A DNA stretch of 12,378 nt from a virus, in the UHGV virus genome UHGV-1613228; one strand, given 5' to 3'. Of the stretch, positions 7,983-12,211 are shown one piece after another. Within the stretch, counting starts at the first letter, position 1; the number at the start of each line of letters is the position of its first letter. The notes under the pieces are model-generated. The model ran no database searches. It was not told the origin of the DNA and saw only the letters and a list, made by a program, of their open reading frames with translations. The position numbers were made by a program, and so were the translations under genes.

Positions 7983-8022
7983 AAACCAGTACAGCCACGG
8001 AAGGCATAACTCATTGCTTCCA

Positions 8023-8049
8023 GCCCGCCGATTCGCCGGGCATTTTTTT
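8023..8049 (+). terminator. Intrinsic terminator or attenuator just upstream of the orphan gene
   Basis: GCCCG / CGGGC stem with a 9-nt loop, then A and seven T. It ends only 12 nt before the orphan gene's ATG and overlaps the region before its Shine-Dalgarno. Confidence 0.5.
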
Positions 8050-8061
8050 AAGGTGAAAATC

Positions 8062-8394
8062 ATGAAAGAGAAGACTGCAGCTGAGCGCTATGCCGCAGCT
8101 ATCAATGCCGCGATGGCGATTGTAAACCTGCGTGAAGAGATTAAAGATCTCCTTGCAATTATCCATAACAACCTGACATGTACAGAGTTGCTTGGCGGTC
8201 AGTACAACGGTGAGGCGGTGAAGGAGGCATTTAAAAATGCCGAGGTAGGAATAATTCCAGCAAACTATGTCAAGGCTGAATGTGTGCTCCTAAAGGCACG
8301 AGTGAGTCTGCATGAAGATCCTGGTAATCTCGGTCGAACTGCAATGCGTTACGTGATAGACGAGTCGAATGCCAAACACAATCTACCGAAATAA
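8062..8394 (+). CDS. Orphan hypothetical protein, 110 aa (moron cargo), function unknown
   Basis: ATG at 8062 with AGGTGA 5 nt upstream, TAA stop at 8392..8394, and its own terminator downstream. Opposite strand to all flanking phage genes. The ORF track's longer version (from 7924) starts at TTG and runs through three hairpins, so I reject that extension. No recognisable motif; no obvious transmembrane segment; predicted helical N-terminus. Confidence 0.7.
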   Translation: MKEKTAAERYAAAINAAMAIVNLREEIKDLLAIIHNNLTCTELLGGQYNGEAVKEAFKNAEVGIIPANYVKAECVLLKARVSLHEDPGNLGRTAMRYVIDESNAKHNLPK

Positions 8395-8398
8395 CACC

Positions 8399-8410
8399 GT
8401 GACATGTCAC
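8399..8410. promoter_or_regulatory. Perfect 12-bp palindrome GTGACATGTCAC, copy 1
   Basis: Seen directly. Lies between the orphan gene stop and its terminator hairpin. An identical copy occurs at 10664..10675, and the preceding C is also shared. Confidence 0.5.
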
Positions 8411-8414
8411 AAAC

Positions 8415-8443
8415 AGCCAGCCTATGAGCTGGCTTTGTTTTAT
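8415..8443 (+). terminator. Intrinsic terminator for the orphan gene, possibly bidirectional
   Basis: AGCCAGC / GCTGGCT 7-bp stem with a 6-nt loop, then TTGTTTTAT on the plus strand. On the minus strand the same hairpin is followed by GUUUGUG and lies about 50 nt after the TerL stop. Confidence 0.6.
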
Positions 8444-8484: not shown

Positions 8485-9960
8485 TTAAGCATAGGGATCG
8501 TAATCTGTGATGGCCTTGCCTTGCTGGTTCTGCTGACCGGGAATTCGCAGACGCTTAGACACAGGGAACGCAAACGTCAGCAGTAGCGCATCGCCTTTAC
8601 CCGGTGAACGCCCAAGCCGCTCCTTGATATCTTCCTTCGGTTCGATAACGATTTTACCGTCCACTCGAACTTTGTACTCTGCCGCCGACAGGTCGTCTGC
8701 TGTTTCCTGGTCATCCAGCATGCCGCCCAGCCTCAGCCATGTCTTGCATGAATTGAACATCTCCCCACGCTTGTTGAGCATCTGCGGGTCAGTAGACGCG
8801 CCACCGAACGGAACAAGTTGCCATGTACGACCCCAGCCGTCACCGATTGACTTCAAACCGGTTCCGTAACCGAAGTCGATGAACACCGCGTCAGCCTGAT
8901 ACTGGTCTTCAAAGTCAGCGATACGCTTCGCCATAATCAGATCGTCGGTAGTCTTGTTGCCAGTCCACAGCACCTTACTGTGTAGCCCCTGCCGCAGGTA
9001 TATCACAGCGTCATCAACGCCGGAGTATGCCGGGTCAACGCCGATTATCACCGGAGCATGTGCAACCTGCGCAGCGGTTACCACCCGTTTCATTGCCTCG
9101 TCAGTAAGACCGGTAGGGATAAACTGCAATTCAGATGCATCAGGGAATATGCCACGCACACGGATTTTAACGAAGTCGCTGTCTTCCCCGTAGTCATCAA
9201 CCCATTTCTGCAACTGCTGTTTGTTAGTGCCTTCCACCGTCCGGCTGTCAATCTGCGCAGTTTTCCAGCGGTGTTTATATTTGCGGAAACATTCGCGAAA
9301 ACGCCCGGTGTTACGTGTAGGGTTTCCGAACGCCACCCAAATAATCTCAGTGTCTTCGTCCGTAAGCGCACCCTCGGCAACTTCCCACACCAGATCCGCA
9401 ATGTTCGACGCTTCATCAAACACCACGATGATGCGTTTGCGCTCGTTGTGTAGTCCGGCGAATGCCTCGGTGTTGTGCTCAGACCAGGGTATTGCGTCAG
9501 CCCGCCACCGCTTGTCGTGCCCTAGGTCATTGCTGTACATCGCGGTAGCGGTACAGGTAAACCAGTCTTTCGTGATAGCAAGGTTCGACCACTTGATAAT
9601 TTCCGGCCAGGTCTTCGTTCGTAGCTGGTTGTCGGTGTTGGCGGTCACCACGACCTTACAATCCTCGCAAGTGGACATGCCCCAGTTGATCAGCATTGAG
9701 ATGAATGCGGATTTACCAATACCGTGACCAGAAGCGCGTGCCAGCATAAGCGGCTGATAGCGCGTCTCTGGATTCTGCAGGTGATCACGTATCTCTCGGA
9801 ACGCATCAGCCTGCCACTGACGTGGGCCGGTGGCATGTGCCAGTTCAGTCCCCTCTTCCCCCCATGGGAACGCATAGAGGGCATAGCCAAGCGGATCGTG
9901 AGTGAACCCTGCAATATCCTCGATTAACTGCTCTTCAGGAGATAACGCTGTATCTGTCAC
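8485..9960 (-). CDS. Terminase large subunit (TerL), 491 aa
   Basis: Walker A-like ASGHGIGKS, Walker B-like VVFDEAS, and a C-terminal nuclease-type motif IIGVDPAY are all readable in the translation. GTG start overlaps the TerS stop (GTGA), with AGGA about 9 nt upstream. Confidence 0.9.
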   Translation of the reverse strand: MTDTALSPEEQLIEDIAGFTHDPLGYALYAFPWGEEGTELAHATGPRQWQADAFREIRDHLQNPETRYQPLMLARASGHGIGKSAFISMLINWGMSTCEDCKVVVTANTDNQLRTKTWPEIIKWSNLAITKDWFTCTATAMYSNDLGHDKRWRADAIPWSEHNTEAFAGLHNERKRIIVVFDEASNIADLVWEVAEGALTDEDTEIIWVAFGNPTRNTGRFRECFRKYKHRWKTAQIDSRTVEGTNKQQLQKWVDDYGEDSDFVKIRVRGIFPDASELQFIPTGLTDEAMKRVVTAAQVAHAPVIIGVDPAYSGVDDAVIYLRQGLHSKVLWTGNKTTDDLIMAKRIADFEDQYQADAVFIDFGYGTGLKSIGDGWGRTWQLVPFGGASTDPQMLNKRGEMFNSCKTWLRLGGMLDDQETADDLSAAEYKVRVDGKIVIEPKEDIKERLGRSPGKGDALLLTFAFPVSKRLRIPGQQNQQGKAITDYDPYA

Positions 9961-10553
9961 TGATTGCCATCCTGACGTTCTTTCAGTCTCTTCCTGGCTG
10001 CCGCTATGCGATCAGCAATTGTCACATTCACATTAACATCCAGGCGTTCTTTGAATGCGTTGACGTCGACGTGCTTACCAATCAGTTCGAGGTTCTTCAC
10101 CTTGTCAGGCCATTTAATTTTTTTGAGGATTGTCTCTATCGAATCCTCGTTCATGTTCATGATGGTCGATGACAGATCAAAGCCACTAAGCGTAGTGCGC
10201 CAGATTTTCGGCCACTCGCGGATTGGCTTAAGGCTCCCATCGTCGTTGAGGATGTCGATCACGTCCATCTGGTCGATCTCCACCAGGCGCATGAGAACGT
10301 AATCAGCACTGACGCGCATTCGTTTGTTGCGCTCTTCCATCAGCTCGGCAATCCGTTTTTGAATGCGTTCATCGCGCATCATGAGACTGGCTTTAACTGC
10401 CGCTGTATTTGGGGAGAATCCTGCGTTAATCGCTGCCTGAGTCTGGTTTTCAGGCGTTTTGATGTATGACTGGCAATAAGCCTCCTGCATTGCTGTTAGT
10501 GGCTTAAATTGCGTTGATTTGCGTTTATAGGTTTTAGGTTCAGCAGGCATCAT
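9957..10553 (-). CDS. Terminase small subunit (TerS), about 198 aa
   Basis: Immediately upstream of TerL and translationally coupled to it. N-terminal region resembles the DNA-binding part of small terminases (LTAMQEAYCQSY...INAGFSPNTA). The ORF track extends to a TTG at 10631, but that extension runs through a terminator hairpin, so I start at the ATG pair at 10553/10550. Confidence 0.75.
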   Translation of the reverse strand: MMPAEPKTYKRKSTQFKPLTAMQEAYCQSYIKTPENQTQAAINAGFSPNTAAVKASLMMRDERIQKRIAELMEERNKRMRVSADYVLMRLVEIDQMDVIDILNDDGSLKPIREWPKIWRTTLSGFDLSSTIMNMNEDSIETILKKIKWPDKVKNLELIGKHVDVNAFKERLDVNVNVTIADRIAAARKRLKERQDGNQ

Positions 10554-10560
10554 AACCACC

Positions 10561-10589
10561 GTGGTAATAGTTACCGTTGTGGTAATAGT
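10561..10589. repeat. Tandem direct repeat GTGGTAATAGT (2 copies, 18 bp apart) in the TerS leader
   Basis: Copies at 10561..10571 and 10579..10589, each followed by (T)ACC. Located between the upstream terminator and the TerS start codon. Confidence 0.6.
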
Positions 10590-10593
10590 ACCA

Positions 10594-10622
10594 TGCAAAA
10601 TAAAGCCGCCATAGTTGGCGGC
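10594..10622 (-). terminator. Intrinsic terminator between the early-region genes and TerS
   Basis: On the minus strand: GCCGCC-AACUAU-GGCGGC (6-bp GC stem) followed by UUUAUUUUG, about 40 nt upstream of the TerS ATG. Confidence 0.6.
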
Positions 10623-10663
10623 AGTATTCAAAACCCATCAAATTCATCATGCATAATCTACTC

Positions 10664-10675
10664 GTGACATGTCAC
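10664..10675. promoter_or_regulatory. Perfect 12-bp palindrome GTGACATGTCAC, copy 2
   Basis: Identical to the copy at 8399..8410. Lies between the stop of the 100-aa gene (10707) and the terminator upstream of TerS. It overlaps a -35-like GTGACA when read on the minus strand. Confidence 0.5.
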
Positions 10676-10706
10676 GCTATTAATTTCGTTTCATGCCAGC
10701 CTTTAG

Positions 10707-11009
10707 TCACCCAGCATTCCGAGTCACCATTACACGGGCATGAATTAACGGGAACTCTCTCGCCGCACTTACCGCAACGTTTCTGCTGATCGATTTTATA
10801 CGCCCGTGCACGCGTGCATCATCCTGGCGGATCAGTAACGCTATATACTCACCAAATTCGTAAGGCGCACGCCCGGGGCGACGCGTGGCACAGTTACGCT
10901 CCAGCATTTCAATTTCCTGAGCATCAAGCACAATTTCCAGCTTACGCACACCAGATGCAGCTTGTCTGGCTCTCTGAGCGGCTTTGCGCTCTGCTGCTGA
11001 TTTAGCCAT
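10707..11009 (-). CDS. Hypothetical small basic protein, about 100 aa; possible regulator
   Basis: ATG at 11009 with AAGGTGA about 7 nt upstream (the ORF track's 11012 start is a TTG). Arg/Lys-rich N-terminus (KAAQRARQAASGVRK). Last gene before the terminator and TerS. Function is inference. Confidence 0.55.
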   Translation of the reverse strand: MAKSAAERKAAQRARQAASGVRKLEIVLDAQEIEMLERNCATRRPGRAPYEFGEYIALLIRQDDARVHGRIKSISRNVAVSAAREFPLIHARVMVTRNAG

Positions 11010-11283
11010 CAATATTCACCTTTATCGCGAACACCTTTGCCGGCTTATCGCCGAAGTGCGGATGTGTGATTGTCTTGATTTCATATCCGTCATACGGGAC
11101 GTCAATTCTGCGGCTGGAATCGTCGCGCTTCGGATATCCCTTTGTGATAATCAGGCGGTCATACTCGCGGAACATAATTCGCTTATTCCAGTAGTCATTA
11201 CACAGGCGATACTCTTCCGTTTTCTCTCCGCGAATCATGGCATCGAAGTATTCACCTTTAACGGCAAGTTGCAGGTTAGCCAC
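11002..11283 (-). CDS. ASCH/PUA-like domain protein, 93 aa
   Basis: GTG start with a strong AGGAGG 6 nt upstream. The N-terminal motif KGEYFDAMIRGEKTEEYR matches the ASCH domain signature as I remember it. Overlaps both neighbouring genes by 8 nt. Confidence 0.6.
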   Translation of the reverse strand: MANLQLAVKGEYFDAMIRGEKTEEYRLCNDYWNKRIMFREYDRLIITKGYPKRDDSSRRIDVPYDGYEIKTITHPHFGDKPAKVFAIKVNIDG

Positions 11284-12211
11284 GGTTAACCTCCTGCGGC
11301 GGTTCTGGCAGCGGCATCCAGTGGGTTACCTCCTTGAGATACAGGTCTTCGCCACCACCGTCATCCCAAGTGGGCTTGCCATCATTAAACCAGTCGCCAT
11401 ATACGCCGACCTGAGTGTTGGGGATGCTTGGTAGGTAGTTGTTTTTAAAGTCAGCAGCTAACACATAGCATTGTCGCTCTCCCATTTCTGGCATTCGCTC
11501 ACTACAGCTTATCCAACCATCCGGAGTTACCGGAACTTGTGGAATGGCTGTCTGCTCTCGAACGTCATTAGGCGCTATAGGTTCTGCTGCCAACTGACTG
11601 GCATATTTGTTAATGGTAACGATAAGCTCTTGCTCAGCCTCATCCAGACAATCACCGATACCTCGCCTGTCACCGTCAAAATCATCGAAATCGGCACGAA
11701 TCCTGGCAACCTTCAGGATTGCGGACAACACCTCACTAGGAATTGCCGGATAGTTGGTTGACGTTTCCGCGATTTCCCGAAAATTATTGGTTGACGAATT
11801 CTTGTTTTCCCGAAAGTTTCCGGACTGAAGCATGGCGGCGCGGCAGGAGTTCCAGGCAAATAGTGCGGCTTCTTCCACTGAAGGCGGAGAGTATCGCTCG
11901 ATAAACGCCTGTGCATTTGACAGCCTCCACTCATGAGGCAATACCGGCGCTGGCGGGGCGATGCGTCCAAGCAACTTATTTACCTCTTTCGCCATCGCGT
12001 CATATTTATCTAAATAGCGATTAGCTTCTAAGCAGACTCGGTGCATCTGATCTGAGTTAACTCGTTTAACGGGATCTGCTTCCAGCGATGCCAGTGCAAT
12101 CCGTGCCAGTTCTTCCGCTTCTTCTGCTGGCAGTACAACGTTGCTACCCGGTCCGTATGTTTCGCGCCACTGCTTGATTGTCAGCAGTCGCCCTTTGGTA
12201 ATAGTGATCAT
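11276..12211 (-). CDS. DUF551 domain-containing phage protein, 311 aa
   Basis: ATG at 12211 with AAGGA 8 nt upstream. C-terminal segment DGWISCSERMPEMGERQCYVL...VTHWMPLPEPP matches the DUF551 pattern common in enterobacterial phage early regions. Confidence 0.7.
   Translation of the reverse strand: MITITKGRLLTIKQWRETYGPGSNVVLPAEEAEELARIALASLEADPVKRVNSDQMHRVCLEANRYLDKYDAMAKEVNKLLGRIAPPAPVLPHEWRLSNAQAFIERYSPPSVEEAALFAWNSCRAAMLQSGNFRENKNSSTNNFREIAETSTNYPAIPSEVLSAILKVARIRADFDDFDGDRRGIGDCLDEAEQELIVTINKYASQLAAEPIAPNDVREQTAIPQVPVTPDGWISCSERMPEMGERQCYVLAADFKNNYLPSIPNTQVGVYGDWFNDGKPTWDDGGGEDLYLKEVTHWMPLPEPPQEVNRG

Follow-up and report, generated by a model that had tools for sequence, protein, structure and literature searches.

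In the Q/PR'/tR' system of phage lambda, the regulator gene is the last of the early genes and lies directly before a terminator that precedes the late genes. In other phages late activators are small proteins, such as Ogr of P2, B of 186, C of Mu and RinA of staphylococcal phages, which are made early, in some cases bind zinc, and are encoded beside the packaging genes, the gene for RinA lying just upstream of terS. We analysed a junction with features of both arrangements in UHGV virus genome UHGV-1613228, a stretch of 12,378 nucleotides called here the window. A gene for a small basic protein is followed by a hairpin with a U-tract and by terS, and all junction genes lie on the minus strand. 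Here the early-right accessory operon of a Uetakevirus (epsilon15/phiV10-type) prophage of E. coli meets the packaging and late operon. The reading that we prefer, with a probability of roughly 0.45, is that the hairpin terminates the early operon, that terS has a repressor-gated promoter immediately below it, and that a site-specific regulator encoded upstream, together with its palindromic target, modulates the passage of RNA polymerase.

The 1-kb region around the junction is 96–98% identical to phages of the genus Uetakevirus (PAS61, O157 typing phages 9 and 10, phiV10, ZX5 and TL-2011b). Of 5426 complete E. coli genomes, 2006 matched an 801-bp query taken at the junction, and in 255 of these the match covered at least 80% of the query. 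The early-right operon of phiV10 runs from the repressor gene through cro-like, replication, Eae, Ead/Ea22 and ASCH genes to gp55, the homologue of the small gene. gp55 closes this operon and, in the prophage or on the circular map, leads directly into terS, terL and the structural genes. The annotation of phiV10 includes no Q-, N- or Ogr-like gene, and the literature that we searched on epsilon15, Uetakevirus, phiV10 late transcription, N15 gp46 and the peptide DEFDGF (see below) contained nothing on the small protein or on the junction.

The hairpin carries every sequence feature of an intrinsic terminator. On the minus strand it reads GCCGCCAACTATGGCGGC then TTTATTTTG (10596..10622), with a stem-loop at 10622..10605 and a U-tract at 10604..10596. 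The stem has 7 pairs, 6 of them G-C, the loop has 4 nt, and the folding energy is −13.8 kcal/mol. Pairing is 100% conserved in eight diverged relatives, where three positions vary, to wobble pairs only; no double compensatory change was found among these eight, which speaks neither for nor against the structure. The surrounding 151-nt region folds better than 200 of 200 shuffled sequences (z = −3.35). Over the window as a whole, matches to the generic terminator pattern show no enrichment (15 occurrences vs 11 ± 3.9 in shuffles). Other Enterobacterales prophages carry non-homologous terminators in the same place, 3' of the homologous gene, and the epsilon15 and phiV10 records annotate the homologous hairpin as a rho-independent terminator. 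By all its sequence features, then, the hairpin is a real and already known terminator of the early-right operon, with a position conserved at the end of that operon. The sequence-only reading had seen a hairpin with a U-tract about 40 nt before terS, and this was correct, the terS ATG (10553) lying 42 nt below the end of the U-tract.

Directly below the U-tract we found a putative extended −10 element for terS-terL, TGgTACTAT (10585..10593, minus strand). In the eight relatives its TG and TAnTAT parts are conserved and the base between them varies (G, T or A), which is the pattern expected of an extended −10. Two operator-type palindromes of the form TTACC-N5-GGTAA adjoin it, TTACCACAACGGTAA at 10571..10585 and TTACCACGGTGGTTA, with one mismatch, at 10553..10567, the latter overlapping the terS Shine-Dalgarno sequence and ATG. 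A third, TTACCTTTCAGGTAA, is located upstream of the portal and head genes (7450..7464), and its epsilon15 homologue is annotated as repressor-binding. Sites homologous to the junction operator are likewise entered as 'protein_bind: repressor' in the epsilon15 record.

The phiV10 genome contains 8 copies of TTACC-N5-GGTAA, vs 0.1 expected, at positions 87, 3252, 20497, 31953, 32015, 32727, 35070 and 35132. They flank the repressor gene on both sides, often lie no more than about 100 nt past terminators, and head nearly every transcription unit, late ones included. By our own reading of the sequence, the −10 hexamers of the putative PL and gene-45 promoters are fused to an operator, as at the junction. 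An operator at the head of nearly every unit suggests direct repressor gating of all operons, as with the stoperators of mycobacteriophage L5 or the C1 operators of P1, in which one repressor motif is also dispersed at unit heads, often over start regions. Unlike those sites, TTACC-N5-GGTAA is palindromic, and its binding by the repressor is putative. From the ATG at 10553, terS encodes 198 amino acids (9957..10553, minus strand; Pfam Terminase_2, E = 7.5e-30). This corresponds to the 594-nt form annotated in TL-2011b. We regard the 224-aa open reading frame (ORF) with a TTG start (9957..10631, minus strand), the long form annotated in PAS61 and phiV10, as an over-call which crosses the terminator and the operators, and the ATG as the credible start.

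Three relatives separate the two parts of the junction. In BUCT711 (3290..3690) and in two other loci, L146 (3850..4250) and L151 (4060..4450; L-numbers are our labels for loci, BUCT711 being L088), a umuD-like moron with a LexA box stands in place of the hairpin. The LexA-box promoter and the umuD-like gene sit between the palindrome described below and terS; 6 nt separate the palindrome from the −35 of the SOS promoter downstream of it, and umuD leads into terS without a terminator. The TGnTAnTAT-operator block is kept right after the umuD stop codon. Since the block persists where the hairpin has been replaced, we assign the promoter and operators to the module of terS and the hairpin to the one upstream; natural relatives can do without the hairpin, which thus is not an obligatory guard of the late operon. 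Conservation suggests that terS-terL is most likely driven by its own extended −10 promoter directly below the U-tract. The sequence-only reading had stated that late transcription must either start below the hairpin or read through it. This dichotomy holds, and the conserved extended −10 and operators favour a start below.

The small gene (10707..11009, minus strand) is the last of the early-right genes and belongs to the family of epsilon15 gp49, phiV10 gp55 and N15 gp46. As read, its product has 100 amino acids with 19 Lys and Arg residues and an isoelectric point of 10.8, in agreement with the Arg/Lys-rich protein of about 100 aa noted from the sequence alone. It is really a frameshifted copy of a gene that is intact in relatives, where it has 339 nt and encodes 112 aa. 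A run of A residues has lost 1 nt, being AAA in the window (10780..10782, minus strand) and AAAA in phiV10, TL-2011b and PAS61. The window copy is the same as the phiV10 protein through residue 76 and is frameshifted after it. The shift removes the conserved C-terminus, KRCGKCGERVPVNSCPCNGDS(E/Q)CWVTKGWHETKLI, which can still be read in another frame: the displaced coding segment (KRCGKCGERVP..CPC..C..W) occupies 10671..10779 on the minus strand and ends with a TGA at 10673..10671. None of the four C-terminal Cys of the family is left in the window ORF; their codons persist out of frame. The exact 100-aa product occurs on 125 contigs (NCBI, JGI, ENA, Logan), which shows a real allele rather than a one-off sequencing error, and a truncated gene carried by a whole prophage lineage.

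A profile search of the small protein, proposed as a check in the sequence-only reading, matched the intact phiV10 homologue to PHROG 536, 'transcriptional regulator' (E = 1.5e-54, residues 1–111), a label that makes the small protein a plausible regulator. That the protein is not lambda Q-like was also borne out, neither it nor 51 relatives matching the Pfam Q families. Searches with the small protein of Pfam, NCBIfam and PADLOC gave nothing above threshold, and a phmmer search of the PDB gave no match. We collected homologous loci by single-protein scans; the family has no conserved stretch of 7–10 residues. It comprises 148 representatives at 50% identity and includes members in Uetakeviruses, N15-like telomere phages (gp46), P2-like Yersinia phages, and Vibrio and Aeromonas phages. 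Across 51 members R8, C79 and C82 are invariant, R13, E54, L59, P87, G95 and C99 are nearly so, and a fourth Cys stands near position 91 in most of the alignment rows displayed.

An AlphaFold2 model of the intact protein has a mean predicted local distance difference test (pLDDT) score of 92.9, with no segment below 70. The modelled monomer has a helix at 5–19, which is Arg-rich and carries R8 and R13, an extended segment at 20–29, helices at 30–42 and 52–74, a Cys knuckle and a last helix at 100–108. The best Foldseek match of this model in the PDB was weak (E = 0.63), TraR not being among the matches, and BFVD gave a single good match, a 46-aa family fragment wrongly labelled 'ubiquitin-binding zinc finger'. 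Two leads to known folds were obtained. The small size, a strand-helix-helix pattern at 22–65 and a short perfect palindrome as likely target recall ribbon-helix-helix (RHH) repressors such as Arc, Mnt, CopG and YbfE. Matches to RHH models were all below threshold (YbfE, 0.051; in 5 of 51 members RHH_5, 0.013, RepB-RCR_reg, 0.028, and RHH_1, 0.071), with no match at curated thresholds. The family also differs from these repressors by an additional N-terminal basic helix, by the C-terminal four-Cys knuckle, and by the location of the site, over the 3' end of the protein's own gene instead of at a promoter.

The second lead is TraR. Lambda Orf73 is named with TraR of F among the TraR/DksA C4 zinc-finger proteins. 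The order long helix, CxxCG..P zinc knuckle and short helix in the family is collinear with the whole of TraR, and the gene stands among accessory early phage genes. hhalign gave a probability of 77.7% over 58 columns spanning the whole of a TraR profile, which was narrow, the homologue search having yielded close relatives only. A profile search of the PDB with hmmsearch gave TraR at E = 0.046 and YbiI at E = 0.047. In contrast to TraR and DksA, the family does not match Pfam PF01258, its second Cys pair (C91/C99) is not of the CxxC type, and it has a 45-residue N-terminal extension. DksA did not align (hhalign probability 0.6%), nor did Mnt or CopG (3.8% for CopG) give a meaningful match. 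We keep the similarity to TraR as a possible lead only.

A perfect 12-bp palindrome, GTGACATGTCAC, of the form GTGAC-NN-GTCAC overlaps the stop codon of the intact gene (site S1, 10664..10675). S1 holds just one sense base and the TGA, so that the palindrome is not imposed by coding, and we consider it the putative target of the family. A second perfect copy of GTGACATGTCAC (site S2, 8399..8410) lies between terL and a convergent moron gene, 4 nt from a bidirectional terminator (8415..8434), and is kept in most related loci and in epsilon15. In phiV10 one site follows the annotated terL terminator at a distance of 5 nt, and the third site (S3) lies 1 nt before the terminator that closes the late operon. 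All three Uetakevirus sites thus lie where a transcription unit ends: one at the close of the early operon, one past terL and one at the close of the late operon. S1 precedes the hairpin by 41 nt in the window and by 23 nt in epsilon15. A copy with one mismatch, GTGCCATGTCAC, was also seen inside a head-region gene, at 5399..5410 of the window and 5306..5317 of phiV10, and may be a weak site or a coincidence.

The palindrome follows the family across phage groups. Whole genomes contain 3 perfect copies in N15, 3 in Vibrio phage K303 and 1 in the P2-like Yersinia phage, phiV10 contains 2 perfect copies and a one-mismatch copy at the junction, and an Aeromonas phage contains 3 identical copies of an asymmetric variant, GTGACCGGACAC, with 0.00–0.05 copies expected in each case. 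The palindrome sits at the stop codon in N15 gp46, in all N15-like homologues examined and in the Yersinia homologue; 12 of 14 Enterobacterales prophages of different genera have it there or close by, and in the Vibrio homologues it lies 238 nt past the stop codon. It was also found in two lineages located by exact protein look-up (L280 and L281). The 255 loci with a homologue carry 1.59 sites per 10 kb, vs 0.09 per 10 kb for the 24 loci (217 kb) that lack one; the two sites of the latter set are both in Uetakevirus fragments. This co-occurrence of gene and site is strong indirect evidence that the palindrome is the target of the family, with binding itself predicted.

A terminator-like hairpin lies within 50 nt of the site in 59% of 135 unique contexts, vs 5.7% of random positions, an association that is confined to Uetakevirus-type loci. 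The order site, terminator, genes recurs before terS of Uetakeviruses, before the antirepressor operon of N15 and before the holin genes of K303 and L281. Within genomes the centre or asymmetry of the site keeps one orientation relative to transcription (TG and TG in N15, AC and AC in K303, CC and CC in L145), and the asymmetric variant is identical and in the same orientation in the three Aeromonas copies and in the separate lineage L284. This constancy hints at a strand-specific function. It is shared with lambda N/nut (boxB) and RfaH/ops, where a small basic protein with an Arg-rich N-terminal helix also goes with a short hairpin-capable element in transcribed DNA; the 12-nt element here occurs after stop codons, before terminators and in 5' leaders. 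Unlike N, however, the family protein is predicted to be confidently folded and zinc-binding, not disordered. As RNA the S1 12-mer forms a marginal stem, of 4–5 bp and −4.9 kcal/mol, whose pairing is broken in the Aeromonas variant. Unlike what the nut comparison would suggest, the half-sites are invariant and do not covary, which fits a readout of DNA better.

Several further lineages also place the family gene or its sites at the early/late boundary or close to it. In K303 and L281 no gene of the same strand intervenes between the family gene and the holin gene, and in L280 a single one does; the terminase genes are further downstream in all three. In K303 and L280 a site also precedes the terS ATG by 11–19 nt (11 nt in L280), in the interval between an HNH gene and terS. 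In the Aeromonas phage the family gene is three small genes upstream of the ORF that precedes terL. One of the Aeromonas sites lies before the family gene itself, and two lie at about +8..+21 of good promoters, the family gene's own promoter included.

We propose that the terminator of the early operon is followed by a terS promoter overlapped by two TTACC-N5-GGTAA operators of the prophage repressor, so that loss of repressor, and not read-through of the hairpin, would mainly gate expression of the packaging genes. The intact 112-aa protein would be a folded, zinc-binding nucleic-acid-binding regulator, with an Arg-rich N-terminal helix, an RHH-like core, a long helix and a four-Cys knuckle resembling that of TraR, and the 12-bp palindrome over its own stop codon would be its cognate target. 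In the weakest step of this scheme, the regulator, made at the end of the early operon, would bind its sites and modulate the passage of RNA polymerase at the adjacent operon ends, an action that would add to promoter-driven late transcription. In our view the regulator likely acts on transcription that passes its sites, perhaps by controlling read-through at unit boundaries, and a role of the small protein in late control is plausible. The frameshift removes the zinc module from the window copy, so this regulatory layer is probably disabled here.

Several observations weigh against this proposal. The promoter, the operators and the binding of protein to site are all deduced from sequence. The putative terS promoter has no recognisable −35, and part of the conservation of its extended −10 could reflect the operator, though other operators lack the TGnTAnTA flank. 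The fold assignments partly conflict because both leads use helix 52–74, and the RHH matches are below threshold, the TraR match coming from hhalign without Foldseek support. Most N15-like, Vibrio and Aeromonas sites lie 12–19 nt before start codons and not beside terminators, two distant lineages (L282 and L286) have no canonical site, and two other lineages have several early genes and an integrase gene between the family gene and the lysis genes. Besides gp46, N15 carries a Q-like gene and an annotated late promoter and terminator. The P2-like Yersinia phage vB_YenM_56.17 has the family gene after gpA and a 72-aa regulator gene after gpD, presumed from its position to be Ogr. Given this coexistence the family is not 'the' late regulator everywhere. 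Finally, the spread of the frameshifted allele means that the protein may be dispensable, or that these prophages are defective.

The same facts set limits to the analogies drawn at the outset. The locus departs from the lambda Q/PR'/tR' arrangement by a small protein without homology to Q, by a terminator that relatives do without, by the separate promoter and operators below the hairpin, and by the presence in N15 of both a Q-like gene and a member of the gp46 family. No conserved promoter separates the gene from the terminator: the sole promoter-like match there, GTGACA-18-CATGAT, is not conserved, its −10 falling in the variable codon 2 of a mini-ORF, and we therefore rejected a layout of the lambda type. 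To the small late activators we detected no sequence relationship, the sites are not at activator positions of the −55 type, and the Yersinia phage has its family gene in addition to the 72-aa gene at the Ogr position. A classical upstream activator acting from S1 was dropped as well, for the spacing between S1 and the terS promoter differs by 18 nt between the window and epsilon15, which does not preserve helical phase. The sequence-only reading had proposed a compact late-control switch, and had named a late promoter mapping below the hairpin as evidence that would speak against it. Its regulator stands as a plausible one through PHROG 536; the switch itself is opposed by the conserved promoter and operators below the hairpin. 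That reading had also overlooked the frameshift in the ORF, the conserved 12-bp palindrome at the stop codon, and the homologues beside a Q-like gene in N15 and a presumed Ogr in the P2-like Yersinia phage.

In a rival reading the junction is an ordinary operon end, in which the hairpin closes the early-right operon, terS-terL is transcribed solely from the repressor-controlled promoter, and the small protein has an accessory regulatory role with no bearing on late control. The protein might then be an RHH-type repressor or autoregulator of neighbouring moron promoters, or a modulator of host RNA polymerase like TraR or lambda Orf73. In many prophages the module of gene, site and terminator precedes LexA-box morons and not terS, and where umuD is present the site adjoins the −35 of its promoter. 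The two Aeromonas sites just inside promoters, that of the family gene included, look like autoregulation; homologues coexist with a Q-like gene and a presumed Ogr, the gene keeps company with Eae/Ead/Ea22, DUF551 and ASCH accessory genes, and the frameshift allele is common. An accessory role leaves unexplained, however, the two further perfect sites 1–5 nt from the terL and late-operon terminators, the sites immediately before terS in Vibrio-type phages, and the recurrent placement of gene and site near the early/late boundary. We consider it an unlikely account, though one to be taken seriously. In the strict form of the compact switch, late transcription would have to read through the hairpin, with the small protein as an antiterminator loaded at the palindrome just upstream (in the form of an RNA hairpin, of non-template DNA or of double-stranded DNA) in the manner of N/nut, Q or RfaH/ops. 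The recurrent order of site, terminator and genes (Uetakevirus terS, the N15 antirepressor operon, the holins of K303 and L281), the Arg-rich helix with R8 and R13, the possible similarity of the C-terminal part to TraR, an RNA-polymerase-binding protein, the constant orientation of the sites (in two separate lineages for the asymmetric variant) and the lack of another annotated late regulator in phiV10 are all in keeping with such a mechanism. It is nevertheless hard to reconcile with a conserved promoter and operators below the hairpin, with relatives that have dispensed with the hairpin, or with the lack of a conserved promoter between gene and hairpin. The RNA stem is of only 4–5 bp (−4.9 kcal/mol), its pairing is broken in the Aeromonas variant, the invariant half-sites without covariation suit DNA readout better, and S2, on the late strand, comes after the terL terminator and not before it. 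Strict read-through control thus appears quite improbable to us.

Two further possibilities concern neighbouring elements. Just after S1, a G-rich stretch resembling a Shine-Dalgarno sequence accompanies an 8-codon mini-ORF (M-H-D-E-F-D-G-F-stop; 10628..10654, minus strand). The stop codon of the mini-ORF is some 5 nt short of the stem, and a ribosome translating the mini-ORF could cover the 5' arm of the terminator and so set read-through into terS. The geometry relative to the hairpin would fit such leader-peptide attenuation, and the substitutions among relatives follow a coding pattern, affecting codon 2 and third codon positions, with one nonsynonymous change (G to V, in TL-2011b). Epsilon15 and L147, however, lack the mini-ORF and have the terminator and terS block, the DEFDGF end belongs in L167 to a 69-aa protein, and DEFDGF-stop mini-ORFs in unrelated P2-like and T4-like contexts point to a function of the peptide over a local attenuator; we hold attenuation to be very improbable. 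We give equally little credit to a packaging accessory that would bind the palindromes flanking terS-terL, or those before terS beside the HNH gene in Vibrio-type siphophages, and aid the recognition of pac or cos by terminase. Such a role would agree with the bracketing of terS-terL by S1 and S2 and with the K303 and L280 sites 11–19 nt before terS in the HNH-terS interval; against it, the N15 sites are in unrelated places, none of them near cos, the third Uetakevirus site is at the far end of the late operon, and the Aeromonas sites are away from the terminase genes. A bolder reading concerns the family as a whole. The gp49/gp55/gp46 family might represent an unrecognised class of phage transcription-elongation regulator, in which an Arg-rich helix and an RNA-polymerase-binding, TraR-like zinc module would be recruited at the 12-nt palindrome (as double-stranded DNA, as a hairpin in the non-template strand or as an RNA hairpin). 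Polymerase would then pass nearby terminators on its way to packaging, lysis and late genes in Uetakeviruses and in Vibrio-type siphophages without Q, N or Ogr. We regard this generalisation as improbable and offer it as a speculation.

The DEFDGF peptide has a wider distribution of its own. The conserved form found between palindrome and terminator is M-x-DEFDGF-stop. ORFs of 8–11 codons that terminate in DEFDGF and differ by synonymous changes recur in P2-like prophages, where they follow the portal gene, and in T4-like phages, where they stand between genes 55 and 47. The DEFDGF end was also seen in L167, L170, L180, L198, L242, L262 and L267, and in L167 it forms the C-terminus of a 69-aa protein located where the window has the mini-ORF. 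This acidic tail with its terminal Phe presumably resembles the C-terminal tail of single-stranded DNA-binding protein (SSB).

Upstream of the small gene, the window encodes a 93-aa PHROG 625 protein and a 311-aa DUF551 protein (11005..12211, minus strand). The former is labelled an ASCH-domain protein in the RefSeq annotations of relatives, its own match to the Pfam ASCH model reaching E = 0.062 only. Similarity among relatives stops exactly where the small gene starts, indicating that the small gene, the junction and terS move as one mosaic module. Downstream of terS lies terL (491 aa; 8485..9960, minus strand; ORF list and annotation of relatives). An insert on the opposite strand (7787..8434, plus strand) separates terL from the portal genes. 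It contains a tRNA-Arg(tct) gene (7787..7863, plus strand), a terminator-like hairpin of 14 pairs (7907..7942, plus strand) and a 110-aa gene (8062..8394, plus strand) at the position of phiV10 gp03, which the phiV10 record describes as similar to Sf6 gene 66; S2 and the bidirectional terminator at 8415..8434 complete the insert.

The literature searched contains no description of late-gene timing in epsilon15/phiV10-type podophages, for which no Q-, N- or Ogr-like factor is annotated; such prophages are widespread, and phiV10 is in use as a reporter phage for E. coli O157. Our analysis yields a testable map of their early/late junction, with a terminator, a predicted extended −10 promoter, predicted repressor operators, and a predicted regulator with its palindrome. 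A conserved family of 'hypothetical' proteins which recurs near early/late boundaries in several phage groups gains a named candidate sequence target. If the family does not control the passage of polymerase at its sites, the junction would be an ordinary operon boundary with an accessory regulator; if it does, it would represent a new type of late switch.

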